Below the pieces are notes generated by a model, which was not told where the DNA came from, did not search any database, and worked only from the letters and a program-made list of their open reading frames with translations. Source: an uncultured Eubacterium sp. (lineage in GTDB: Bacteria; Bacillota; Clostridia; Peptostreptococcales; Anaerovoracaceae). Taken from it: a stretch of DNA of 64,000 bases. Location: NCBI GenBank assembly GCA_964388765.1, contig CAYMBU010000001.1, positions 596 through 64,595 on the forward strand, read 5' to 3'. Position numbers and translations under genes: made by a program. The stretch's first letter is position 1. Each line of letters begins with the position of its first letter. Below, in pieces: positions 22,314-36,072 of the stretch.

Positions 22314-22347
22314 AAAAAGCGTGGGACTGATTCGTCCCACGCTTTTA
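22314..22347. terminator. Bidirectional intrinsic terminator
   Basis: aaaagcgtgggac-tgattc-gtcccacgctttt between convergent genes. Confidence 0.8.
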
Positions 22348-22400: not shown

Positions 22401-23357
22401 TTAAGCTGCGCTCCCCTTCTTTCTTCTGAATATTAGGAACAGAAGTACCGCGAGCACCGCGAACCCCGCGACTCCGGCTACGACGCCCGCGTTCGGGCCT
22501 GCGCCGCCGTCCTGTCCAGCCTTGTCTCCGGCTGCCTTAGGAGGCTCCTTATCTCCGTCAAGATCAGTAACGTCGCCGGTGTTTCCTCCGTCGCCGCCGT
22601 CTGAATCATCGCCGCCGTAGAAGATACGGCCTGCCGCGGCTCCAGTCGTCCTGCCGCCGTTTCCGTCAGCATCACCGGCGTCATTCCCGCCTTCTCCGCC
22701 GTTTTCACCTTCCTCGTCTCCTGATCCTTCTTCCTCGATCACATTCGATCTATAGGTGAACACGAAGTGGTTGTCCTCTTCATTCTCCGTAAGAGTCTTC
22801 ATCACATTGTTGTGATCAGGCACGTAGCCTTTAATGTGCTTATACGATACCACCGGCTTATCTCCCGGCATTCCATAATACGTGTCTGTATCACGCAGCT
22901 TCTTACCGTCTTCATCGACATAGTCGACAGTATACTCTACCATGCCGCCTTTCATTCCATACGCCGCTGAAAAATCAAGGTCTTCCTTGACTTCAAACGT
23001 GTACGTCTGATAGTAGGCTCCGGCTATCTCATCATTGTCATGTCCGGAAAGCTTGAGGCCCCTGACATAATACTTGTCGCTGTCCTTGATCTTCAGGTCC
23101 AGCTCGCCTGCGTCGATAGTGCATGTGTCTCCATATTTAAAGCCGGTCAGCTTCTTTACAGTATTGCCTTTGGTCCCGAAGTATCCCTCTTTGCCGGAAT
23201 GTATGGTGACCGTGTAGGTATATTCTTCCTCATCCGCGTAAACGGTTTTTTCTCCCGGCAGCTCCATGCCGGCGTTCCGGCAGACGAGCACCGCCGCCAT
23301 GATCATCAGAACTGAGGCGAGCAGCACCGCGATCCTGATCTTACTGGTCATTTTCAT
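22401..23357 (-). CDS. Surface protein with a MucBP-like domain, Gly/Asp linker and C-terminal TM anchor
   Basis: Signal peptide; YTVDYVDEDGKKL...IKGYVPD...FVFTY; TM helix plus RRKK tail. Confidence 0.72.
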   Translation of the reverse strand: MKMTSKIRIAVLLASVLMIMAAVLVCRNAGMELPGEKTVYADEEEYTYTVTIHSGKEGYFGTKGNTVKKLTGFKYGDTCTIDAGELDLKIKDSDKYYVRGLKLSGHDNDEIAGAYYQTYTFEVKEDLDFSAAYGMKGGMVEYTVDYVDEDGKKLRDTDTYYGMPGDKPVVSYKHIKGYVPDHNNVMKTLTENEEDNHFVFTYRSNVIEEEGSGDEEGENGGEGGNDAGDADGNGGRTTGAAAGRIFYGGDDSDGGDGGNTGDVTDLDGDKEPPKAAGDKAGQDGGAGPNAGVVAGVAGFAVLAVLLFLIFRRKKGSAA

Positions 23358-24126
23358 CTGCTTCCCCTCCTTTTCTTCTGAGTACAGCGATAAGCAGGAT
23401 GATCCCTGTCAGCATAAGGACTATGTACGGGATGAGCTGTGTCATGTCTCCCGTGCGCGGGCCGCTCTTCACTGCCTTCTTTCCAGGCGTCGTATGGGCA
23501 CTCGCAGGTTTCGTTACTGTCTCAGGCTTATCTACCGCAAACGCAAGCTCTACCGATCCGTCCGTATCCATGTAGTCGTTAACTTCAGTCTCACCGTCAA
23601 AAGCGATGTTGAGCGTCACCCTTCCGGACTCTCCTTCTTCCAGGCTGGCAAGATAGAACCAGTCGCTCAGGGCGTTTGTCGCCTGTTCCAGTCCCTGCAT
23701 GTCGTTCGGCGTCTCTTCTCCTCCGACCTTGCCGTTGGAAAAGATCACTTTCTGTTTCCCTCTGTCATCCGTATGGATGAGCTCATAGGAATACGCGCCG
23801 TTTTCAGGAGTTCCCGTGCCCTTCACTTTCTTCTTTGAGCTGTTGGCCTTTTCAAGAGTCTGGATCACGTCGTTGGACATGTACCAGTCCGTAAGGCCGT
23901 CGTACGCATTCTTGTATTTTACTGTAAATGTTACACTGTCTCCCGGCTGCAGGCCTGATATCGTGTCAGCGACTTTACCTGTCTTGAAAGATGAGGTGAT
24001 CTTGCTGCCGTCGAACTCTGAAGTACCGTTCAATTTATATGTCTTAGCGGACGATACCGCAGTCTCTGCTCCCAGCATGACAGCCACGGCTATAAGGAGC
24101 ACGAGTACCGATCTGTATCTTTTCAT
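23341..24126 (-). CDS. TasA-like subunit with a sortase sorting signal (GPRTGD)
   Basis: Signal peptide; LQPGDSVTFTVKYKN; C-terminal PRTG, TM helix and RRK. Confidence 0.68.
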   Translation of the reverse strand: MKRYRSVLVLLIAVAVMLGAETAVSSAKTYKLNGTSEFDGSKITSSFKTGKVADTISGLQPGDSVTFTVKYKNAYDGLTDWYMSNDVIQTLEKANSSKKKVKGTGTPENGAYSYELIHTDDRGKQKVIFSNGKVGGEETPNDMQGLEQATNALSDWFYLASLEEGESGRVTLNIAFDGETEVNDYMDTDGSVELAFAVDKPETVTKPASAHTTPGKKAVKSGPRTGDMTQLIPYIVLMLTGIILLIAVLRRKGGEADENDQ

Positions 24127-24138
24127 ATCTCTTCCTCC

Positions 24139-24915
24139 TTAATCCACCGTGATCTTTCCGCCGCGCACAGCGACGTTCGATACTCCCCACTGGCTCTCCA
24201 TAGCGTCGTTTGCGTTATGGGTCTGCACAGCCTGGACGTCGGCTTTGATCATGAACGCGCTTCCGTCGTATCTGTAAACATAAGTATACGTCGTCACGCC
24301 CGTTTCCTTATTCTCATCTGTAGTGACTTCATAGTCGTCAGCTATCTTGCTGTCGATCACGAGCCTGTTGAACAAAGGCGCGCTGCTCTTTCCGGCAGGT
24401 ACTTCTGATCTGCAGTAATACGTGCTCGCTTCAGCTGTGGACTCGTGCTCGTTAATGACCCACGCGGAGCTGTTGTACTCTTTACCGTCATATGAGAGTC
24501 TGATCAGATCAGGTGAAAGGGTCGTGATCTTCTCTTTCGTCTCAGGATCAAGCCAGTATTTCCTGATCGTCATCCTGACGTATACCGGGATGTCCTGGCC
24601 GTTGCCCGCGGCGATCTCTTCCTTATACATCTTTCCCGGCTCAAAGCTTCCGAGCTTGTTTTCGCTTTCATAGCCGAGGTACCCAACGAGCTCTCCTGTG
24701 ACCTTGCTTTCTCCGTCCAGCGTGTTCTCTCCGCCGCATACGTCGCGGCCGTTCTCCAGAAGGTGTACCTGGAGATGGTTCATAAAGAACGAAGCCTCAT
24801 AGCTGTCGCTCTCAAAGTCCATACCGGATCCCGCTGCAAAACTCCCTATCGCTCCCGCGACAGTAAGTACAACTGCAAGGATGATGAGCGCTGTTTTCCT
24901 GCTTATCTTCTTCAT
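24139..24915 (-). CDS. SipW-type/BsaA-like fibre subunit
   Basis: GAIGSFAA signal end; PGKMYKEEI..N...PVYVRMTI, YYC..V.AG..S.PLF, IKADVQAVQ pattern of camelysin/TasA/BsaA-like proteins. Confidence 0.65.
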   Translation of the reverse strand: MKKISRKTALIILAVVLTVAGAIGSFAAGSGMDFESDSYEASFFMNHLQVHLLENGRDVCGGENTLDGESKVTGELVGYLGYESENKLGSFEPGKMYKEEIAAGNGQDIPVYVRMTIRKYWLDPETKEKITTLSPDLIRLSYDGKEYNSSAWVINEHESTAEASTYYCRSEVPAGKSSAPLFNRLVIDSKIADDYEVTTDENKETGVTTYTYVYRYDGSAFMIKADVQAVQTHNANDAMESQWGVSNVAVRGGKITVD

Positions 24916-25427
24916 CAGTCGCTCACCTCCTCCATACCAACGGCTATATCAGGATAGAGCCAGCCTTCCGGCTTCACGACTCTGTTCTCTTCTGTACCGT
25001 CGTAGATGACTCTGACGGACTCGTGTGCCACGACTATATCGAAGTCATGTCCGGCTTCATCTGCCTTGGCCTTATCGATCCTGACGTTGATGACACTGGT
25101 CGTGTTCCCTGCCTCAAGGATCTTCTTGTAATACCAGAATCCGTCGCTTCCTTCGACCCAGTCCTCTGAAGGCGCGTCTATCGTGATGTTATCACCGTAG
25201 ATACCTACTCTAACGAGAAGATCTGTCTCACCTGTGTTTTCCACTTGCAGGACTTTCCCGTTTTCGTCCGCTTCCTCATGGACCAGGCTCGAGCCGTTCA
25301 GATGAACGTCCGCTCCGCCTTTTGCCTCTTCATAGTCAGTGAAGTACGCATAGCATACAGCCGCTGACATGACAGCAATAGCTGCCGCGAGACAAATCAG
25401 AATTGTTGATCTCGCCTTTCTCATCAT
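24915..25427 (-). CDS. SipW-type/BsaA-like fibre subunit
   Basis: YAYFTD SipW-class signal end; VENTG...LVRV, DGFWYY...LEAG.TT. Start moved to MMRKARST behind GAGGAG. Confidence 0.7.
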   Translation of the reverse strand: MMRKARSTILICLAAAIAVMSAAVCYAYFTDYEEAKGGADVHLNGSSLVHEEADENGKVLQVENTGETDLLVRVGIYGDNITIDAPSEDWVEGSDGFWYYKKILEAGNTTSVINVRIDKAKADEAGHDFDIVVAHESVRVIYDGTEENRVVKPEGWLYPDIAVGMEEVSD

Positions 25428-25428
25428 C

Positions 25429-28400
25429 TTACTCCTCACCGCCTTCGAATCTGACGCCGCTGCCGTTGTCACTGTAGTTGTTGACTATACCACCGTTATC
25501 TCCGGTCCCGCTCTCGCCTATATCGTTCTCGAACTCGAACAGCCATACGGTCCTTCCTCTGTATCCGCGGTACTCTCCGTCGTACTGCTCGACTTCCTTC
25601 TTGGTTATCTTCGCCTGCTTAGGAGTGTAGCTGCCGCTGTAGATCTCAGTCACTGTATACTCCGCGTCTATCGGAACTTTCTTCAGCACCTTGGTCTCAG
25701 AAGCTCCGCTCTCCTCGTTAAAGGCAAAGCCCACTGTATTCTGATAAACGATATTGCCGTCCTTGTCTTTACCTTCAACACGGAACGCGATTGTCGAGTT
25801 CTTTCCTGAGCCGGCGCCGAATCTCTCCGGCATCTTCTTGGTGAGCAGAAGATCTATGTAGAGGCAGCGGTTTGTTATCGTGAACTTTCCGTCTCCGGCA
25901 GGCGATATGCCCGTTTCATAGTCTGCTACAGGCTGCTCAGAAACAGTATATTTGATCTCATTCCAGTTCGCGTCTACCTTAGGAAGGTTTGCGAACGTGT
26001 GCTTCCAGTCCTGCTCCGCTGTGACTTTCACGGTATCGGCGACCTTGCCGTCCGCGAGAAGCTCCACTGTGATCTCGCCCGGCCTCAGCCCTGCTGAATC
26101 GTTATAGTCGTCCCAGTACTTCTCTACGCTGACCTCGGTAAGTTCTATGCTGTTTGTGATCCTGAATTCCTTATTGATCTGGTCTTCGATCTTGTTGCCT
26201 TCATCGTCCAGCACATATTCACCGTTCTCATCGACGACATACTTCGTTACAGGCTCTACGACCGGCTCTTTGTAATGAGGAACTCGGTCTTCTTCTACGA
26301 CGTAGTTGATCATGTTGCCCTTGTCGTCTGCCATCATCAGCTGATCGAACCTGAATTCCCAGCTGCCCTGCGCATCCGGAAGCTTCGCCGTTATTTCCTC
26401 ATATGTCGGCTTGCCGTTTTCATCAAGTACAGGCTCTCCGTTTTCATCCATGATCTGCCTTGTCGCAGGGATCAGTACCGGCTTTCCGTTCTCGTCAACG
26501 ATCTCTTTACCGTTTTCATCGAACTGGTTCCTCATGAGGCGTACAGTTATCTGTCCAGGTCTGAGTCCCGCCGCATTATCCCGGTCGTCCCAGACTTTGG
26601 TCCCTGTTACTTCCATGTAATTCAGCGTATTGGTGACGGTGAACGTCGTTACTATGCCTGCGCTGTCGGTCTCCTGATCGATAGTGGTGTCATAGTAGTC
26701 TACTTCATCCTCAGTTACTCTGTATTCGATCTTCACACCGTCTTTGTTGTGGTCCGGAAGATCCTTGAACAGCTTGCTCCAGTTTCCGTCTTCGTCTTCT
26801 TTGATCACAGCAGAATCGATCTCTTTGAAGTCTTCTTCTGCAGGCGCCTCATATACCGGCTTACCGTTATCGTCAAGGACCGGCTCGCCCTGATCATCAA
26901 GCTTCTGTTTCCATTCCGCTGACAAAAGATGTACTTTGATCTCATCCGGACGGATCTTCGCTATATCGTCTCTGTCATCCCACTTCTTCTCTACATTGAT
27001 CTCCACATAATTCAATGTATTGGTGATGTTGGACGTCACATTGCCGTTTTCATCTGTCTCAGGGTCGCTTATTTCTGTGTCATAGTACCGGACCGCATCC
27101 TCTGTAACAGAGTAACTTATATGCGTACCGTCTTCCTTTTCCTTGAGCAGATGTCCGAATTTATATGTCCAGTTTCCGTCTTCGTCCGGAGTAAAGTCCT
27201 TACTGTCGACTTTCTCGCCGTTTGCAAACAGATTCACCGTTATCTTTTCCGGACGCTTTCCTGCCTTGTCATCGTTATCGACCCATGTCTTGGTGCCGCT
27301 GACATCCACATATTCAGGCTGATATCTGTTGTCCACCGTAAGCCGGATCTTGGTATCTGTGTTGTTTACGAACCACCGGTTGTTATTGCTGTGCTCTTCT
27401 CCGTCAATGCTTATCTTCAGATACTCATAGTTATATTGACCCATATCGAGTTCGAGCAAAGTATATTTCTTCCCGCTTATCCATGCCCAGAGATTGTCTT
27501 CATCATCTATGAAAGCTTCGCTCTCCGGATCATATTTACTGCAATAGTCAATGGTCCAGAGTCCAAGCTCATATGAGCTTTCTCCTTTCTTGACCGTATA
27601 TGGAAGATAAACAAACTTCCTGCCCTGTGTCACCAGATTGGCTGCTATCTGGTCTTCTGTCATATCAGAGACATCATTAAGATCCTCAATCGGGTCTCCT
27701 TCATATATTATGAATTTGAAATCCAGATCCTGTTCAGCCTTATGATTGACGATCTTGGTGACTTCTTCTGTATCCGGCTCTACTACATCTTCCATAACAG
27801 GTTCATAAACAGGATCACCGTTCACGTCTAGAACCGGATTGCCTTCTCCGTCAAAGACCTGCTGCTGCATCGGTTCTCCGTTTTCATCAAGGACCGGCTG
27901 CTGCTTCGGATTGCCGTTCTCGTCCAGAACCGGCTTAAATACAGGATTACCGTTTTCATCTATCTTCTGAACAGTTTCCGTGACCTCTTCAGAAAGCTTC
28001 TTTGTCAGGATCGGAGCGTTAGGATACTTAAGCCCGACGTTAAGAGGCTGAGCTTCAAGGTAAATACTTGCACTATCCTCTTCTGTGTCGTTTCTGGTAA
28101 GAGGTACCTGATACTTATAGCCGAAACTGTTCCAGGCTATCTGTCCCGGTTCAGCGTTATTGTCATTGATTCTGGCATTAAACGTTATATGCAGGCGGAA
28201 TTCCTTATACATCTGATATAAGCTGGAGTCCATCTGCCATGCGTTCGGATCTTTTACTACGACTCTTATGGATCTTGCTGATTTAAGGACCTCCTTCAGT
28301 TCATCCCCTTCAAGGTCATCGATCCTGGTCCATCCTTCTCCAGTGCCTATCCAATCCGTTGCTCTATCAAACGTAGTCTTGGTCGAGACATACACTTCAT

Positions 28401-31400
28401 ACTGTGACTCATCAACAACAGTCTCTGCACCATCTGTATTTACACCACCCGACTCCCCGGTCTTCTGAGCCATAGTGACTGTAAGTCCCAGATCGCTTTC
28501 AAGGAAGCCGACCGAGAATTCGCTGTGTCTTTCATCATCTTCAACGAACGCACTATGGTCTCCCTGATGAGGCAGATCGTCAATAACGACCATTTTGCTG
28601 ATGGACGTAGTAGGCCCGATTACATAAAGATCATATTTAACGTTCTTTGTCTTATCACTTAGTACAATGTAGTTGGATGATTCATCACTTCTCGCAGTAT
28701 TTGAAGGATCGTCTATCTCTGTTATCTGTTTCCAGCTCGATGTAGTATATCCCTGGTTCAGCATTATCGACGCACCGGACTGGATGCCGTCGTTCTTTGT
28801 TATCAGCTGACCACTTTCATCATATTCCTGCTTTGTTCTGGCGCGGCCCTGCACAACGCTGTCCGGATCATAGCCCTGCTCCGGATATAGAATAGCGTCA
28901 TTATATTTAGGCTCACTGATGATGACCTCATCAAGCGTGTACATGGTATGTACGCATAGATCCATCCAATGCCCCGCAGGGATCGAATACCCCGGCCCGG
29001 TCATCTTTATGGTCATTATTTCTTTGCCTTTGGCATCTCTTTCAATCTTGACCTTGCCTGATTTTGCTCCGGAACCGAATGAGAACCAGTCATCATCGCT
29101 GTCATCCTCAGCGCTGCCTATATTCAGATCTCTGTTTCCGCTCGCTGTAAGAGTATCTCCGGAAGAGATCCTGACTTTCGTATCGCGTCCGGATTCAGAT
29201 TCGGCGATCGTTCTCGTTCCTAAAGTAAACAGGTATTGTGTAGAATGCGTTACTTTAGTTCCGTTTGCAGAAGTATTACGGTACATGTCGTAATACACTC
29301 TCCCGGTAAAGCTGAATGGCGTATCAACAGTATCTACTATCGTATAATCTGTCATCATGCCTCCGGCTTCATCATTTCTGCCCGGTGCTTCATTATACAG
29401 CCTGAGCTTCCAGTTAACTACATCGCTGGTCTTTGCGCCGCCTTTATATTTCGTGCCGTATCCTGATGAAGGGCCTTCAACTGTAGTGGAAGTCGGATTA
29501 TTGGCTTTCTCTGTCAGTCCGCCTATCGTCTTCTGCAGGCCCGGCGTTATGCCGGCACGATGAACCGTTACTGATGAAACCATGAAGTTACCCTTCTCAT
29601 TGGAATTGTATGCGTCATCTGTATACTGTGACGTATTCATACCAAACTTTTCAGCAACTTCATCTTTCGTCATCAGCTCGCAGCCGCCGTCATTAGGAGT
29701 AATGCCGGTTACGGCTCTGGCTTTCTGGATCGCACCGCCATTGCCTTCCTCGTCAGGGGCATCAAGGGTAAATCCTGTATTGTAATAGTCGTAATACGGC
29801 ATGGTGATGGTATTGGTCGCCTCATCATCTGTCTTGGCATACTGATCGATCAGCACGTTATATCCGAAACGTACTGCTTCGCCCGGATTCAGATAATTCT
29901 TGCCTACCTCACTGTCATATCCCACGCCTGTGACCTTGAACGTGATATGCTGCCTGCCGTTAACAGTCCTGACTGAAGGAGCGATATACGCTGCTTTATA
30001 TGTTACTGTATTATTGTCATATGGGTCCGCGCTTTTGTCTATCGTAACCAGCTTCTCGCTTGTGCTGCCTCTTGATTCTGTAGTTACTGAACTGTTATAT
30101 GAACTGGTACGATAACCTATATAGCCAGTATACGTAGAAGAGTTGTTATCTATACGAGTGTTTGTTGCACTGGTATAGCACATACTGTTATATGTGAATC
30201 CCCTTGGTAATTCATCTTCAATATCGCTTAAATACAGTCTGTCATAACTGCCATTATATAGGATCGTATAGTAAGTTATTGTCGATGCTTTCAGGTCAGG
30301 GTCGCTTATAGAATTACTGCCTGTACCGTTCTGATACATCAAGCGTGTATTATTGCTGGTGTAAGTTCCGCGATAGCTATATTCAGATCCACCTTTTGTT
30401 GTCAGGCCATTATCGTAGACCCCTTTATACAGTACGGCTTTACCCTCGCTCTCAAGCAGATGATTGACTGAATCGTATCGTCCGTCAAGATAGAAAGTAT
30501 TTGTCAGCTGCTTTCCGGCATATTCAGCCACATACTGATCCCATACTGAAACACCTTCGGTTCTCGCAGGGAATGTAAGATCTACCAGTATTTTTACATT
30601 TCCGCTGACAGGGAAATGGATATTGAAATTATTATCCCATCTTATCTGCTGCAGTCCGGCTGTGGAAGTGGTATCTATCCTCCAATGATCGTCAACAGTT
30701 CCATCTGTCGGAATGCTGACAGCATCTGTTCCCGAACCATATTTGATTTCCACTCCATCGGAACCTATGAACCTTAGATTCTTGACATTCACACCCTTTT
30801 CCCATGTAAACTTGCCTTTGTTGTTAGGCAGGTTGTCATAGATGCGGCTTCCATTCAATACAGTCGGCGCAGTGCTGGTGTTGTTGATCGTGATCTGGTA
30901 TGTCGCGGTATCAGACTGTCTCAGCCTTGAGAATTTCACTAAAGTACCATCTGAGGTGCTGTCTGTTCCGTCGCCATGTCCATTTTTAGAGACAATGTAT
31001 TTACTGAAACTGTATACCTGAGTATAGAAGCCCATGTAATCATACAGTCTGTGCCCCTGATGATCTCCGAGCCATGCTTTATTATTAAGTTCATATTGTT
31101 TGACTTCACCAGGATTATCCGCACCGGCTAATCCTGCTTTTTCAGCACTTACAAGACTCCTGTAGTGCATATATGTAGCAGTAGATGTCCCGCCCCAGTT
31201 CTTAAAAGGCTTCCATATTATCTTTGTATTAAGACTGGTGCGTTTATTATTACTCACTGTTTCAGTAACAGTGATATCCGCTTTCCAGTTTTGTGTGCCC
31301 TTTCTTTCGCTGGCTGAGTTGGTACTTGTTTTTCTCCCGAAAGTCACGTTTGTATATGTTCCGGGTTTATTCAGAAGATAATAACTTATTCCATCTGCCG

Positions 31401-34400
31401 TATAAGTGTCCAGCTCGCTGCCGTCAGGCGCTGTAAGGCCCGGATTCTGAGCCACCGGAGCCAGTGCGACCTGAGCTCCGATCATATAATCAGACATGTT
31501 CATGTGATCATACGCTTTGCCGCTGGTATTATATGCATATAGTGTTGAGTCTATTACAGTACCGTCCTTGACCGATGTAGAGTTGCTCGTTATCTGTGAG
31601 TTGTTCATGTATCCATATTTGTATAAATACAGTTCTCTGTACCAGTCATGGACATATTTGGTTTTATATGTTTTATTTCTGTCCTCCTTGCCGACTCTCA
31701 ATCTCACAGTTGCTGAATTATCAAGGGACATATAAACACTTGGATAATATGATTCACTATCTGATGTGAGCAACATCGGCGTTGTCTTTATGGTAGTCAG
31801 TATTGGGACCACCAGTTTTTGCCCTGGCTTAAGTATGAATTGTTCATTAGGCCTGAGCTTATAATCCGCTTTATATATTGTATTGCTTGTCGGCATATAT
31901 CCTATTGCCGTAAACAAAGCTTTTATGCTGGAATAATCGCCGCCTGCTCCAATCGTATATGTTTTATTATTTTCGGCTGTAGTATCTCCGCTGAGGGTGA
32001 CAATAATCTGACCATCGGTGTTTTTAGTAATAACAAATATTGCGCCCTCATTTACCCTTAAACCGTTATCATTGGCATGCGATATGTTAGAATTGCTGTT
32101 TGCCGTATATTTATTATTCTGGTCAGTACCGTCTACTACAGGATATTCGTTAGGATCACCATCATTGTTGTTATATAAAGAGCCCTTGGTTATCGTTATC
32201 GTAAGCCAGTCTCCGATATTTACATTCTGCGCGTTGGCGCCTGTTCCCAGCGAGACGACCTGATTGAGCATTTTTTCAATATTCTGCGGCTCAATGAAGA
32301 GATATCTATTGATCGTGTCTTCAATCAGATGACCATCATATTTCTTTACACCGTCTACAACGGACGCGGCTCCCCAATCAGTGAGATTTAAAATACCCGT
32401 ATTATTAATGGTAATGTTAAAGAATTCGTCTGTTCCGCCATTCCTGTTAGGACGGCTGCTGTCATCTAGCTGCTGGAATTTTTTGTTGATCAGAACATCA
32501 TAATTGGCGTCGACCGGGTTGTCGGCGCTGCTTTCAGCTGTCTGATTCGGCGAATATGAATAGTGTCTTATCTCATCTGTCTCATTGTGGATCTTAAGCA
32601 GCTCAGGCAGTGTCTTGTCCGGGTTGTTGTCAAGCAGCTCGTTTACTTTATCCAGGTCAGCCATGATGACGCCGTCGCCGAATCTCAGATAGAAATCCTG
32701 AGCTGCATATTCATTCGTAGCGCTGGCTCCGCTGAGTGAAGTATTCGATACTTTCCACGTAAGCCTCAGGGTCTTCCCGTCATCTCCGACTTTTACCTTA
32801 AGATTATCTATATATGTATAGTCATAACCACCGCGTTTACCGAGATATGCCAGATAATACTTCTTGCCATTCGCATTCACGGTAATGGCTTTCTGTGTCA
32901 TGGTGTTGGTACCATTATCCGAATACTGAGAGGAAACATCTTCCACGGACCACTTGCCGGCCTGCAGAGCTTCTATGACCTCAGGTCTCCAGTATAGTTC
33001 TTCAGGGAGCGTTATCTCATCATGGTAATTGACCCATCTGATGAAATCCAGTCCTTCTGTTGTTGACGAGCTGCCGCTCTGATTAGTTTCCTTTAGCCTG
33101 TATGCCAGTGCCGTTACATAGGCTTCTCCGTCCGAATTAGTCATTATTATCGGAGTACGTCCCTTGGATACTGTAGTATCATAATATGTAGTGTTGGTCT
33201 TATTGTAATCAAACACTATCGGCGATGTGAGCCAATCCAGCTCCATATAATCCTTAGGATTGATGACCTGTCCTTCAGTCTCCTGAGCGAGTTCCTTGGA
33301 GATGGTATGCGTCCAGATCTTGACTTCACCGCCGCCGGTTTCTTTGACCGGATAATGTATGTCGTTGGTGAACGCCAGCGTTTCTCCCGGAAGAATACCT
33401 GTGATCTCGTAATAATAGACGTTAGGATTGTCCGTCTGGACAACTTTCATAGGATAGATAGTGCCTGTAGAAGGATTCTTGATGTTATAATCTCCCTCAT
33501 AGAAAGACCCCATTTTATATCCGTCTTCACTGTAGGAGAAATAGATCCTTACCACTTTATCTAAAGTAACATTGTCATCATTGGATATGGCAATCGTATA
33601 TGTTGCGATCTGTCCAGTCAGATAATCATACGTTTTATCCTCTTCAGGCTGTTTGTCGTTAACGGCAACCACAACTTTAAGGGTCTGTTTTCCATCACTG
33701 TTGATATAAGTATCCTGGATCGTCTGTACCAGCTCACCTTCCACGTTTCCAATCGGGAAATCACAGAGGTTAGATACTTTACGCCAGGCATCAACATCTG
33801 TGATCGACTCCTCGCCGTTTACGGTTTTGCCCATATTGTCTGTCGCCGTGCTCCATCCGGTAAACGCAGAGGATTTAAGATAAATATTCTCAGGCTTGGC
33901 AAAAGTTATTGCAGTAAGATCGTCCGCAAGACTGAGCGCATATGCGTTGATGCCGTTAACGGTGTATTCTGTGCCATCCGGCGTGGTTATGGTTTCCGGA
34001 ACCGTATAGGTCTCTATCCCTGGCGGAACATATGCCAGAGATGCCTTGCCGTCATCGGATAATTTGTAAAGGACACCCTGTGGATCAACATAAAATGTCC
34101 CGTTGAGATCCTTGAGCGGTTTTGCTCCGCCTTTGGCTGTAGCCTTGGTGATCTCTATTACGTTTTCTCCCTCAAAGAATGTGTCTGCGTCTGCAGGTAT
34201 GGCGGCAAGCACGTTTCCGTTGATTTTCTTTGTTTTATCTGAAATCGTTACAGTTTTAAGATTATCGTCGCCATGGAACAGATTTGAATTTGATACAGAT
34301 GTAAGCTGTTTTGCTTCTATCCTGACCGTTTCCAGATTGTCGCAGTTTTTAAAAGCAGCTGACCCGATGGTTGTAACATTTTCCGGAATGACAAGCTTTG

Positions 34401-35904
34401 TCATATCTTCGCAGTTCTTGAACGCTTCCATTCCGATAGTTGTGAGTTTTGTCATGTTAGACATATCACATGATTCCAGCCTGGTCCCATAGAACGCTCT
34501 GTCTCCGATCGAGGTGATATACTCGTGGTTCTCCAGCTGATCCCAGTTTTTGATGCCTGTTTTATTGTAGAATGTATTGTTTCCTATTGTTATGTCCTTT
34601 TCAGGCAGTATGATCTTCTCCAGATTGGTAAGCTTTACTGTACTGTTAGTCGCGCTTGATTCAAACAGGCCGTAAGACAATGAGAAAGTTGTGGCTCTCG
34701 TTGATTCTGTCCATGCGGAAAGGTCCACGACCTTAAGATTTGTATCTCCTCTGAAAATGGCGTCAGGAAGAGCGCTGCTGTAGTAGTTTCTGACAATAGC
34801 GCCTTCTACTTCACGGAAAACAACATCTTCAAGTGCTGTGCAGTTTGAAAAAATGTAAACTCCTGCTGAATATGGAATATAGAAAAACGCCGGCATGCTT
34901 ACAGACTTCAGCTTGCTGTTGTCCGCAAAAGCATATCCGGCGATCTGATAGTTTGAGTTGGATGAATTATACGAAGTCGTGCTTTTCGCAATGCTGTCAG
35001 GAATATTTACTTCTTCAAGCGCGCATGACCTGAATGCCTCGTATCCGATGAACTGAAGCTGGGTGTCTTCCAGATTGACTGATGACAAAGCAGAGCAGCC
35101 GGTGAAAGCGCCTGCCTCAATTTTCTGGAGCGAACTCTTGCCATTAGAACCCGTCTTGAATGTGACTTTCTTTAGCTTGGTATCTCTTATGCCTGCATTA
35201 CTGCTGTTGTTGTCTCCGAATGCAACGGTCCCTATCGTCTGGACTGTGGACCCTATCTCCACTTCTTCCAGCCCTTTGAGATTCTGGAAAGCACGGGTAT
35301 TGATGGCCGTGCATCCCTCGGGGACGACCACTTTCTTGATCTGTGACTTTAAATCACCCAGCTGAGTGGAAATGTTGGCAACAAAATTAGCCGGCACTGC
35401 AAATGTTGGCGGGGTCGCGGCCGTTCCGGTGTACTCAAAAGTAAGGGTATAATTACCCTCTTCACCGGTGACTTTCCATATCCAGTCGCCCGACACTGTT
35501 CCTGAAGGCAGTTCGTCTGCCCGAAGCTGAAGTGATGAACGTGGAACTACAGCGCTCTGCTTTTTCTTTCCGGCGCTGTTTTCTGACTTTTCGTCGTCAC
35601 TGTTAGATGGGCTGGCTTTCTGCTGCCCGCCCGAAGATCGTTTGTTCTGGCCTTGTTCCGGCGCGCTTTGACTTTCCGCGCCTTTTTCAGGCTGTTCGAC
35701 GCTTTCCCCGGATCCTTTCCCCGGGGACGTATCGTCTGTTTCTGCCTTTACTTCGCCTGCCTGCTCTGAAACAGCCTGTTGTTCTGTTTCTGCAGCACTG
35801 CTGACCGCTTCCTCTGCCGCGGCGGCGACCGCCTGCGACGGCATCATGGAAAAGATCAGCAACATGATAAGTAGTAGGGACAATAACTTCCTGCTCGTCT
35901 TCAT
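25429..35904 (-). CDS. Giant (3491 aa) adhesin: BspA-type LRR_5 N-terminus, large central region, tandem CnaB domains, no LPxTG or TM anchor
   Basis: Signal peptide MKTSRKLL (AGGAG RBS); I...AF..C..L..V.IP repeats; four K.WDD.D....RP..I.V.L CnaB repeats; ends FEFEND...GGIVNNYSDNGSGVRFEGGEE. Confidence 0.85.
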   Translation of the reverse strand: MKTSRKLLSLLLIMLLIFSMMPSQAVAAAAEEAVSSAAETEQQAVSEQAGEVKAETDDTSPGKGSGESVEQPEKGAESQSAPEQGQNKRSSGGQQKASPSNSDDEKSENSAGKKKQSAVVPRSSLQLRADELPSGTVSGDWIWKVTGEEGNYTLTFEYTGTAATPPTFAVPANFVANISTQLGDLKSQIKKVVVPEGCTAINTRAFQNLKGLEEVEIGSTVQTIGTVAFGDNNSSNAGIRDTKLKKVTFKTGSNGKSSLQKIEAGAFTGCSALSSVNLEDTQLQFIGYEAFRSCALEEVNIPDSIAKSTTSYNSSNSNYQIAGYAFADNSKLKSVSMPAFFYIPYSAGVYIFSNCTALEDVVFREVEGAIVRNYYSSALPDAIFRGDTNLKVVDLSAWTESTRATTFSLSYGLFESSATNSTVKLTNLEKIILPEKDITIGNNTFYNKTGIKNWDQLENHEYITSIGDRAFYGTRLESCDMSNMTKLTTIGMEAFKNCEDMTKLVIPENVTTIGSAAFKNCDNLETVRIEAKQLTSVSNSNLFHGDDNLKTVTISDKTKKINGNVLAAIPADADTFFEGENVIEITKATAKGGAKPLKDLNGTFYVDPQGVLYKLSDDGKASLAYVPPGIETYTVPETITTPDGTEYTVNGINAYALSLADDLTAITFAKPENIYLKSSAFTGWSTATDNMGKTVNGEESITDVDAWRKVSNLCDFPIGNVEGELVQTIQDTYINSDGKQTLKVVVAVNDKQPEEDKTYDYLTGQIATYTIAISNDDNVTLDKVVRIYFSYSEDGYKMGSFYEGDYNIKNPSTGTIYPMKVVQTDNPNVYYYEITGILPGETLAFTNDIHYPVKETGGGEVKIWTHTISKELAQETEGQVINPKDYMELDWLTSPIVFDYNKTNTTYYDTTVSKGRTPIIMTNSDGEAYVTALAYRLKETNQSGSSSTTEGLDFIRWVNYHDEITLPEELYWRPEVIEALQAGKWSVEDVSSQYSDNGTNTMTQKAITVNANGKKYYLAYLGKRGGYDYTYIDNLKVKVGDDGKTLRLTWKVSNTSLSGASATNEYAAQDFYLRFGDGVIMADLDKVNELLDNNPDKTLPELLKIHNETDEIRHYSYSPNQTAESSADNPVDANYDVLINKKFQQLDDSSRPNRNGGTDEFFNITINNTGILNLTDWGAASVVDGVKKYDGHLIEDTINRYLFIEPQNIEKMLNQVVSLGTGANAQNVNIGDWLTITITKGSLYNNNDGDPNEYPVVDGTDQNNKYTANSNSNISHANDNGLRVNEGAIFVITKNTDGQIIVTLSGDTTAENNKTYTIGAGGDYSSIKALFTAIGYMPTSNTIYKADYKLRPNEQFILKPGQKLVVPILTTIKTTPMLLTSDSESYYPSVYMSLDNSATVRLRVGKEDRNKTYKTKYVHDWYRELYLYKYGYMNNSQITSNSTSVKDGTVIDSTLYAYNTSGKAYDHMNMSDYMIGAQVALAPVAQNPGLTAPDGSELDTYTADGISYYLLNKPGTYTNVTFGRKTSTNSASERKGTQNWKADITVTETVSNNKRTSLNTKIIWKPFKNWGGTSTATYMHYRSLVSAEKAGLAGADNPGEVKQYELNNKAWLGDHQGHRLYDYMGFYTQVYSFSKYIVSKNGHGDGTDSTSDGTLVKFSRLRQSDTATYQITINNTSTAPTVLNGSRIYDNLPNNKGKFTWEKGVNVKNLRFIGSDGVEIKYGSGTDAVSIPTDGTVDDHWRIDTTSTAGLQQIRWDNNFNIHFPVSGNVKILVDLTFPARTEGVSVWDQYVAEYAGKQLTNTFYLDGRYDSVNHLLESEGKAVLYKGVYDNGLTTKGGSEYSYRGTYTSNNTRLMYQNGTGSNSISDPDLKASTITYYTILYNGSYDRLYLSDIEDELPRGFTYNSMCYTSATNTRIDNNSSTYTGYIGYRTSSYNSSVTTESRGSTSEKLVTIDKSADPYDNNTVTYKAAYIAPSVRTVNGRQHITFKVTGVGYDSEVGKNYLNPGEAVRFGYNVLIDQYAKTDDEATNTITMPYYDYYNTGFTLDAPDEEGNGGAIQKARAVTGITPNDGGCELMTKDEVAEKFGMNTSQYTDDAYNSNEKGNFMVSSVTVHRAGITPGLQKTIGGLTEKANNPTSTTVEGPSSGYGTKYKGGAKTSDVVNWKLRLYNEAPGRNDEAGGMMTDYTIVDTVDTPFSFTGRVYYDMYRNTSANGTKVTHSTQYLFTLGTRTIAESESGRDTKVRISSGDTLTASGNRDLNIGSAEDDSDDDWFSFGSGAKSGKVKIERDAKGKEIMTIKMTGPGYSIPAGHWMDLCVHTMYTLDEVIISEPKYNDAILYPEQGYDPDSVVQGRARTKQEYDESGQLITKNDGIQSGASIMLNQGYTTSSWKQITEIDDPSNTARSDESSNYIVLSDKTKNVKYDLYVIGPTTSISKMVVIDDLPHQGDHSAFVEDDERHSEFSVGFLESDLGLTVTMAQKTGESGGVNTDGAETVVDESQYEVYVSTKTTFDRATDWIGTGEGWTRIDDLEGDELKEVLKSARSIRVVVKDPNAWQMDSSLYQMYKEFRLHITFNARINDNNAEPGQIAWNSFGYKYQVPLTRNDTEEDSASIYLEAQPLNVGLKYPNAPILTKKLSEEVTETVQKIDENGNPVFKPVLDENGNPKQQPVLDENGEPMQQQVFDGEGNPVLDVNGDPVYEPVMEDVVEPDTEEVTKIVNHKAEQDLDFKFIIYEGDPIEDLNDVSDMTEDQIAANLVTQGRKFVYLPYTVKKGESSYELGLWTIDYCSKYDPESEAFIDDEDNLWAWISGKKYTLLELDMGQYNYEYLKISIDGEEHSNNNRWFVNNTDTKIRLTVDNRYQPEYVDVSGTKTWVDNDDKAGKRPEKITVNLFANGEKVDSKDFTPDEDGNWTYKFGHLLKEKEDGTHISYSVTEDAVRYYDTEISDPETDENGNVTSNITNTLNYVEINVEKKWDDRDDIAKIRPDEIKVHLLSAEWKQKLDDQGEPVLDDNGKPVYEAPAEEDFKEIDSAVIKEDEDGNWSKLFKDLPDHNKDGVKIEYRVTEDEVDYYDTTIDQETDSAGIVTTFTVTNTLNYMEVTGTKVWDDRDNAAGLRPGQITVRLMRNQFDENGKEIVDENGKPVLIPATRQIMDENGEPVLDENGKPTYEEITAKLPDAQGSWEFRFDQLMMADDKGNMINYVVEEDRVPHYKEPVVEPVTKYVVDENGEYVLDDEGNKIEDQINKEFRITNSIELTEVSVEKYWDDYNDSAGLRPGEITVELLADGKVADTVKVTAEQDWKHTFANLPKVDANWNEIKYTVSEQPVADYETGISPAGDGKFTITNRCLYIDLLLTKKMPERFGAGSGKNSTIAFRVEGKDKDGNIVYQNTVGFAFNEESGASETKVLKKVPIDAEYTVTEIYSGSYTPKQAKITKKEVEQYDGEYRGYRGRTVWLFEFENDIGESGTGDNGGIVNNYSDNGSGVRFEGGEE

Positions 35905-36043: not shown

Positions 36044-36072
36044 ATTATATTGCCTGGACTGTGTAAAGTCAA
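36044..36072 (-). promoter_or_regulatory. SigmaA promoter of the adhesin operon
   Basis: TTGACT-N17-TATAAT. Confidence 0.75.

Follow-up and report, generated by a model that had tools for sequence, protein, structure and literature searches.

A five-gene operon in the genome of an uncultured Eubacterium sp. may encode a heteromeric surface appendage that is anchored to the wall, belongs to the TasA/BsaA strand-complementation kind and has a giant adhesin plugged onto it, a reading to which we give a probability of roughly one half. The operon lies in a stretch of 64,000 nucleotides (the window; contig CAYMBU010000001.1 of assembly GCA_964388765.1) from a genome assembly of 1.75 Mb in 201 contigs that is 87.6% complete. 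Gram-positive surface fibres are usually sorted either as sortase pili or as TasA-type matrix fibres made without a sortase; the operon points to a second hybrid, unrelated to the Elr pilus of Enterococcus faecalis and recurring in gut and rumen Clostridia. An earlier interpretation of the same DNA, made from its letters alone (the sequence-only reading), had proposed a hybrid fibre tipped by an adhesin without an anchor; what it observed was confirmed, and its interpretation is partly supported. New here are an invariant plug at the C-terminus of the first protein, its modelled docking on the second, and the placing of the window as a variant in which the payload has been swapped. Gene anatomy, synteny, conservation, predicted folds and a model of the docked tail that passes its controls were all computed directly. 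The main uncertainty is whether the appendage is a fibre or a fixed adaptor and, after that, what the last gene does. Throughout, F1 denotes the first gene of each locus (g1 in the window) and g2 to g5 the next four.

A conserved, putative attachment module at the C-terminus of the adhesin

The five tightly coupled genes of the sequence-only reading were borne out: all five open reading frames (ORFs) lie on the minus strand where it had placed them, with gaps of 1, -1, 12 and -17 nt between g1/g2, g2/g3, g3/g4 and g4/g5. The first, g1 (25429..35904), encodes 3491 residues from its ATG, and family scans and hydrophobicity agree with its earlier description as a leucine-rich repeat (LRR) and CnaB adhesin that lacks both an LPxTG anchor and a transmembrane segment. 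An N-terminal signal peptide is followed by BspA-type LRRs (six LRR_5 stretches, at about 33805-35157), a long middle region without a domain match, four Cna_B domains (about 25870-27300) and a terminal attachment module. The only hydrophobic segment in the protein is the N-terminal signal. Three LPXTG-like strings were found in g1, none of them ahead of a membrane segment, and there is no membrane segment at the C-terminus.

The attachment module begins with an immunoglobulin (Ig)-like domain (residues 3347-3464; 25513..25866) that scores below the cut-off for PF19407 (DUF5979; 20.4 bits against 25), a family that precomputed annotation assigns to most of the F1 orthologues of about 330 residues. 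An alignment of the last domain from 16 diverse F1 proteins contains an invariant Lys, Glu and Asn (alignment columns K30, E94 and N134), which correspond in g1 to K3356, E3420 and N3460, the last of these lying in the canonical last strand, FEFEN. Such a pattern belongs to the internal Lys-Asn isopeptide bond of pilin-type Ig domains (CnaB and Spy0128-type), and by analogy the three residues look like an intramolecular isopeptide triad.

Beyond this domain g1 continues into a tail (25432..25512) made up of a Gly-rich loop, the motif GxG[VI]xNx[YF] with invariant G3472 and N3475 (here including GGIVNNY, 25474-25494) and a variable acidic end. The motif was found in every one of the approximately 25 loci examined, and while F1 ranges in length from 322 to about 3,500 residues, it always ends in a DUF5979-like domain, a Gly-rich loop and GxG[VI]xNx[YF]. 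We considered whether the tail is simply the last strand of the CnaB-like domain, and rejected this, since the alignment places the canonical last strand upstream and leaves the tail as an addition. The free C-terminal peptide thus proves to be a real element, conserved and appended to a domain that looks complete, and modelling makes it a candidate donor strand for g2.

Predicted docking of the adhesin tail on g2

One complex prediction was made, in which the C-terminal 165 residues of g1 served as partner to mature g2, g3 and g4, each given as an alignment. It scored 0.78, as compared with 0.45 for the best of three controls and 0.00 for unrelated partners; the mark it passes is reached by 58 of 80 solved complexes and by 2 of 110 mismatched pairs, counts that hold roughly here, custom alignments and four chains being unlike the calibration set. 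The runs share at least 96% of their contacts, with a predicted local distance difference test (pLDDT) value for the partner of at least 79. The score fell to 0.45 when g3 was replaced, which places the contact mainly with g2; contact of the g1 module with g3 is minimal.

The g1 side of the interface is formed by residues 139-163 of the segment, which make up the entire tail, and by one face of the last domain; on the g2 side the interface consists of residues 17-31 and 98-111, the first and last long strands, and includes the invariant residues E24, K31, F102, V106 and E109. Residues of the g1 module that lie in the interface are more conserved than the rest (p 0.003). Neither g2 nor g3 has a sequence match in the PDB, even at an E-value of 10, making it unlikely that the prediction recalls a known complex. 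The model has the appearance expected if a C-terminal donor strand lay between the edge strands of g2, and it supports, rather than establishes, binding. The proposal of the sequence-only reading that this peptide could enter the first small subunit has thus gained in silico support, both from the score and from the invariance of the motif.

BsaA fibres combine strand exchange with an Asn-Lys isopeptide lock formed by an Asn-Glu-Lys triad (PMC11580942). In our model N3475 of the g1 tail and E24, K31 and E109 of g2, all invariant, lie within the interface, and by analogy with BsaA a similar Asn-Lys lock between g1 and g2 is conceivable.

Variable payloads on a constant module

A scan with a g2 profile recovered 14 loci from Anaerovoracaceae, Oscillospiraceae, Lachnospiraceae and unclassified Clostridia metagenome-assembled genomes (MAGs), among them a locus in a sheep-gut Eubacterium sp. 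MAG (L009) that is near-identical to the source genome. The order F1-g2-g3-g4-g5 is present in 12 of the 14; in the other two (L018 and L022) g2 was filtered out or cut by the contig end. The same order recurs in distant metagenome loci sampled from distant g5 representatives (L023, L026, L028, L030 and L032) and in loci reached by reciprocal sampling from F1-like proteins (L034-L036), so that gene order is identical throughout the roughly 25 related loci examined. The source genome itself holds three paralogous copies of the module, in the window, on contig C40 (3-12449) and on contig C92 (68-6024) continued by C116 (1-5181), as well as an extra g4-g5 pair on C183 (98-1734). C92 carries, in order, a signal peptidase I, an LPXTG pilin, a class C sortase, an F1 of 437 residues, g2 and g3, and C116 carries g4, g5, a pseudo-sortase and a giant adhesin; the two look like one locus split by the assembly.

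Most loci begin with an LPXTG tip pilin, an LPXTG backbone pilin (GramPos_pilinBB and SpaA) and one or two class C sortases, and continue with an F1 of about 330 residues (DUF7601 and DUF5979, without LPXTG), g2, g3, g4, g5 and a SipW-type peptidase. In loci of the Anaerovoracaceae type, C92/C116 included, a bacterial-type signal peptidase I lies upstream and a sortase-like gene of about 190 codons follows g5. A giant adhesin (3,300 to more than 3,500 residues) takes the F1 position in the window, on C40, where it ends in the same tail, and in L010, L011 and L016; in these loci pilus, sortase and peptidase genes are not adjacent. The payload at the F1 position therefore varies, while the end of F1 and g2 to g5 stay constant, and it is probable that a sortase pilus and a giant adhesin are alternative loads of one and the same stalk. 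Judged by its gene content, the window is a variant in which a giant adhesin replaces the usual pilus and which has no pilus, sortase or peptidase genes of its own. The claim that the architecture is distinct from class C sortase pili is qualified accordingly, in that the module stands directly behind such a pilus in most related loci.

In related loci, the signal peptidase I associated with the locus is preceded by a small coiled-coil protein bearing the motif LLEIMLRQGEEID (C92:5305-6024, minus strand; L013:4639-5016; L036:5741-6373). In the source genome it is apparently fused to the N-terminus of the signal peptidase I (239 aa).

Two small subunits with predicted TasA/BsaA-like shape

The second gene, g2 (24915..25427, minus strand; 170 aa, or 185 aa from a GTG at 25472), encodes the smallest and most conserved subunit. 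The sequence-only reading had assigned SipW-class signal ends to both g2 and g3: in g2 this stands as a borderline case, its AYFTD-type signal scoring 17.8 bits by hmmscan and 20.3 bits in a six-frame search against the SipW-cognate model TIGR04088 (cut-off 19), but the GSFAA end of g3 is not recognised by that model. The mature N-terminus of g2, YFTDYEEAxGGA, is nearly invariant and yet, in a fold made with 26 homologues, its first 15 residues have a pLDDT below 50, ahead of a core modelled as a beta-sandwich with pLDDT above 85. An invariant but disordered N-terminus is what would be expected of a donor strand.

Compared with clusters of the ESM Atlas, the g2 model gives TM-scores of 0.64-0.71; 73-74% of the members of these clusters carry PF12389, and one cluster is labelled as CPF_0494/BsaA family. 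The Atlas model of g3 (24139..24915, minus strand; 258 aa, secreted) likewise matches CPF_0494/BsaA-family and PF12389-bearing clusters, with TM-scores of 0.65-0.71. These comparisons, for both subunits, set one prediction against another, and the matched clusters taken together have 13-74% of members with PF12389. Orthologues of g3 score 35-39 bits against the BsaA-family model TIGR04090 (E 6e-10 to 1e-8), and as this is below its cut-off of 60 bits, we take it as a sign of remote homology and not of membership; g3 of the window itself gives no match to this model at E <0.01. The likeness of the subunits to TasA/BsaA given in the earlier description rests on predicted shape, embeddings and sub-threshold hidden Markov model matches; no subunit reaches PF12389. 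Of the subunits, g3 is the best candidate for the repeating unit of a fibre.

Close orthologues of g3 are patchy in their distribution: of about 398 other Clostridia species sampled, 3 gave strong matches, and no such match came from the genus or family of the source genome. A g3-like ORF on C40 (11121-12449, plus strand) matches g3 over its first 190 or so residues and then runs into unrelated hydrophobic sequence up to the contig end, and is possibly a chimeric contig or a disrupted gene.

A candidate wall anchor and a membrane-tethered last protein

The fourth gene, g4 (23341..24126, minus strand; 261 aa), encodes a secreted TasA-like protein with a complete sorting-signal layout: GPRTGD (23446-23463), a membrane segment (residues 227-253) and RRK, just as had been read. 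The sorting motif of the family has the consensus [VIP]xTGD, g4 orthologues pass the models TIGR03063 (srtB_target; 22.5 against 18.15) and TIGR01167 (18.1 against 15.9), whereas the window copy gives just a weak match, to NF053819. Clusters with PF12389 and Gram_pos_anchor are found among the neighbours of g4 in embedding space. On the strength of this signal, g4 is a candidate for the wall-anchored base of the stalk. Profile searches agree with the sequence-only reading that the window holds no sipW or sortase gene. Elsewhere in the genome, where that reading had suggested looking for both, C129 encodes a class B sortase, which scores 190 bits on TIGR03064 (cut-off 153.75), and C92 one of class C; sipW was not found in this 87.6%-complete assembly. 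The class B enzyme is a candidate for anchoring g4, and with the sorting signal it lends support to the idea that the PRTG protein tethers the structure to the wall.

The gene of about 190 codons that follows g5 was considered as a cognate sortase and rejected: in the alignment the catalytic His is missing and, in the paralogous locus of the source genome, so is the Cys. The gene occurs at C116:3097-3693 (minus strand) and L013:13095-13661, and in L014, L015 and L017-L019; its products have SGSP at the site of the catalytic His, the Cys is missing in C116 and L017, and the Arg is mostly missing. It is probably a pseudo-sortase, in the position that sipW holds in other lineages, where a SipW-type gene follows g5 (L020, L030 and L034-L036).

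The last structural gene in every locus is g5 (22401..23357, minus strand; 318 aa). Its product consists of a signal peptide, a two-domain head (22746-23228), an acidic, low-complexity linker rich in Gly, Asp and Asn that is long enough to span the wall, a C-terminal membrane helix (22419-22502) and a basic tail, a type I layout. An AlphaFold 2 model of the head (pLDDT 89) shows two small beta domains, for which Foldseek returned Mub-type structures, including YwfG and Mub-R5 (4mt5, Mub-RV, E 2e-5; 7yl4, 6e-5; 3i57, 7e-4). MucBP is matched by 10 of 13 g5 orthologues (best E 9.5e-6), with g5 of the window at 20.8 bits against a cut-off of 23. The description of a MucBP-like, membrane-anchored protein is therefore sound, if with a weak match to the family itself. 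A chaperone of the ElrE or PapD kind was also considered for g5 and dropped, as the head matches Mub repeats; we regard g5 as a candidate accessory or assembly factor, or a candidate second adhesin. The head family comprises 1542 representative clusters at E <=1e-3 and 585 at E <=1e-30.

The first domain of g5 contains a nearly invariant loop, RG(L/F)KxAGHDNDE (H63, D64, N65 and D66 of the head alignment), which looks like a metal-binding or functional site. Two database proteins, P0033 (573 aa) and P0121 (575 aa), join g4 and g5 in one product, with the sorting signal of g4 and the signal peptide of g5 kept between the halves, and are either gene-calling read-throughs or real fusions.

Operon boundaries and occurrence

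A promoter-like site, TTGACT-17-TATAAT (36044..36072, minus strand), lies about 140 nt upstream of the g1 start; it is a consensus match only, at 11 of 12 positions. At the other end, between g5 and a convergent gene, is a palindromic, GC-rich hairpin (22315..22346) with a perfect 13-bp stem, an A-run before it and a T-run after it, which is likely to be a bidirectional terminator closing the operon. Gut metagenomes of cattle and sheep, from some ten studies, contain the stretch at >=99% identity. Exact contigs of 151-254 nt from the gut RNA libraries X19 and X20 cover window positions 24251-25727, 27230-27409 and 33380-33821, in g3, g2 and g1. They hint weakly at transcription of the operon in the animal gut; DNA carry-over is possible, the contigs are few, and the parts of the operon they leave uncovered carry no meaning. 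In public records the orthologues of g1 to g5 are named hypothetical, with the exception of g4, which appears as a "sortase B protein-sorting domain-containing protein".

Proposed assembly and alternative explanations

From these results we infer an assembly in which strands pass from g2 to g3 to g4, together with polymerisation, sortase cleavage and a role for g5. Exported by Sec, with the attachment module at its C-terminus, g1 would dock its strand and one domain face on g2, filling the sandwich of the latter. In TasA, each subunit's N-terminal strand completes the following one, and TapA is predicted to give the first strand (PMC9674648); given that its strand is modelled to dock into g2, g1 would act like TapA, as a starter at the distal tip that provides the first donor strand. 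The g2 protein would serve as an adaptor whose unstructured, invariant N-terminus complements g3, to be followed by further copies of g3 or by g4. As the last acceptor, g4 would be linked to peptidoglycan through [VIP]xTGD by a sortase, for which the class B enzyme is the candidate, and g5, a Mub-like protein tethered to the membrane on its long linker, would probably aid assembly or hold the base.

Several results weigh against this scheme. In Pfam and NCBIfam scans of the window proteins and 13-26 orthologues of each, g2, g3 and g4 fell into no curated family. PF12389 (Peptidase_M73) was matched by none of the three window proteins and, among 13-14 orthologues of each, by a single g4 orthologue (E 0.0014, 19 bits against a cut-off of 22.5), so that no subunit reaches the threshold of either PF12389 or TIGR04090. 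Against solved structures (Foldseek, VIA-align), the g2 model resembles generic Ig-like sandwiches with Z <=6.7, and TasA is not among the top matches listed. The last domain of g1 looks complete, and the tail could fold back on its own domain without g2. The complex score expresses the confidence of the model and is not a measurement, and it covers the g1 interface alone. The fold of g5 is unlike that of known strand-donating chaperones. Finally, no SipW above the cut-off was found in the window or the genome, which yielded two weak LepB-like matches, both on C42; since the genome is 87.6% complete, this does not prove absence.

Among the other explanations, the one that carries most weight, if still a rather unlikely one, is that g2, g3 and g4 form a short, non-polymeric connector in a fixed 1:1:1:1 arrangement that ties the F1 protein, which is the adhesin in the window and the base of a sortase pilus in other loci, to the wall, without a repeated subunit. 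The three subunits belong to distinct families with distinct conserved N-termini, none of them being obviously the major one; in canonical sortase-pilus loci the LPXTG basal pilin is missing and the module stands in its place; and BsaB, a paralogue of BsaA, forms dimers only (PMC11580942). However, studied relatives of TasA and BsaA do polymerise (PMC9674648, PMC11580942), and the computed results fit one or many copies of g3 equally well. It is improbable that the operon follows the chaperone-guided route of Elr, with g5 as a membrane chaperone that primes g2, g3 and g4, and g1 as a tip that acts only as acceptor. The layout does parallel elrABCDE, where genes for an LRR adhesin lacking LPXTG, for two small secreted subunits and for a protein anchored by sortase are followed by one for a membrane protein, and the C-terminus of window g4 weakly matches NF053819, the EF2685 (ElrB)/EF0750 model, at 24 bits against a cut-off of 47. 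Yet Pfam scans gave no match to WxL, DUF916 or DUF3324, the head of g5 matches Mub/MucBP and not PapD-like or CsuC-like chaperones, and the tail of g1 enters g2 in the model, which makes g1 a donor and not an acceptor.

Slightly less probable again is that g2 is a transient partner of the g1 C-terminus, as a secretion or folding chaperone or a cap, and that g3 to g5 build a separate surface structure. The g1-g2 contact is the sole one scored, with minimal contact to g3, and g2 is the smallest and most conserved of the subunits, which would suit such a role; a chaperone would leave the invariant, disordered N-terminal extension of g2 unexplained, however, and g2 shares with g3 both a signal peptide and a TasA-like shape. 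That the five proteins are physically independent adhesins or matrix proteins, merely co-regulated, we hold to be least credible of all: public records call them hypothetical and none has been studied, but distant families keep their order strictly, with translational coupling, g1 lacks an anchor of its own but ends in an invariant module, and the model of the g1-g2 interface passes its controls.

Returning to the strand-complementation appendage, we have also considered a bolder version of it, which strikes us as unlikely. Here GxG[VI]xNx[YF] would be a plug that is inserted in g2 and then locked by an intermolecular isopeptide between its invariant Asn and the invariant K31 of mature g2, with E24 or E109 as catalyst, and g2 to g5 would form a universal stalk for either a giant adhesin or a sortase-built pilus, the latter joined through the pilin of about 330 residues that lacks LPXTG. 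If true, plug and socket would be a modular, SpyTag-like coupling that unites two pilus assembly chemistries in one appendage. More generally, we propose that a small TasA/BsaA-like set of proteins serves as a socket, anchored to the wall, on which adhesive payloads are interchangeable. Should this be confirmed, it would explain how giant adhesins without an anchor of their own are retained on cells, would give a function to four families now annotated as hypothetical, and would provide a C-terminal strand-donation module usable as a tool for coupling proteins.

Comparison with known systems

Class C sortase (SpaA-type) pili share with the window CnaB, SpaA and DUF5979-type Ig domains with probable internal isopeptides, and related loci place the module after the tip pilin, backbone pilin and sortases, with F1 at the position of a basal pilin. 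Unlike the pilins of such systems, F1, g2 and g3 carry no LPXTG; a sortase is absent from the window, and the links that we propose are non-covalent strand insertions in place of bonds made by sortase. Type V pili of Bacteroidota (FimA/Mfa1) also use C-terminal strand donation, and Mfa-like proteins are weak shape neighbours of g2 and g3, but these pili belong to another phylum and rely on lipoprotein export and protease-triggered assembly, and the shape matches are weak and generic.

The tapA-sipW-tasA operon of Bacillus subtilis resembles the window in its beta-sandwich fibre built by strand complementation, with the starter role of TapA here proposed for g1. The strand of TapA is N-terminal, however, whereas g1 has its strand at the C-terminus, after an apparently complete Ig domain; TasA fibres have no sortase anchor, and the window proteins score below PF12389. 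Closer in lineage is the bsa locus of Clostridium perfringens (sipW-bsaA-bsaB-bsaC with an adjacent srtB; PMC7395162, PMC11580942), which likewise has distant clostridial relatives of TasA, SipW-type signals and several paralogous subunits per operon, and to whose BsaA model (TIGR04090) orthologues of window g3 match at E about 1e-9, below the cut-off. In most C. perfringens strains one copy of BsaB carries an LPXTG motif beside a sortase B gene, and BsaA/TasA genes often adjoin genes for LPxTG and SpaA proteins, signal peptidases and sortases (PMC11580942). In contrast to bsa, the window lacks sipW and the VWA protein BsaC, adds two proteins that bsa does not have, an adhesin ending in an attachment peptide and a membrane protein of Mub-like type, and places its [VIP]xTGD anchor on a dedicated subunit, g4.

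The nearest parallel in logic is the Elr WxL pilus of E. faecalis, which combines strand exchange with a sortase anchor and is reported to be almost confined to Bacilli (bioRxiv 10.64898/2026.10.17.759780). Together with the LPXTG-bearing BsaB (PMC11580942), it sets a precedent for strand-exchange fibres with sortase anchors, and to that extent the architecture is less singular than the sequence-only reading had supposed. Both operons follow the same five-gene plan, with an LRR tip that lacks LPXTG, a pair of small subunits, a terminator anchored by sortase and a last gene whose product is anchored in the membrane, and both would combine non-covalent strand exchange with sortase anchoring, as proposed for the window. 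The families and folds are nonetheless unrelated, the window having no WxL, DUF916 or DUF3324; g5 is Mub-like and not chaperone-like; the polarity would be reversed, with the tip donating a strand in the window and accepting one in Elr; and the window belongs to Clostridia.

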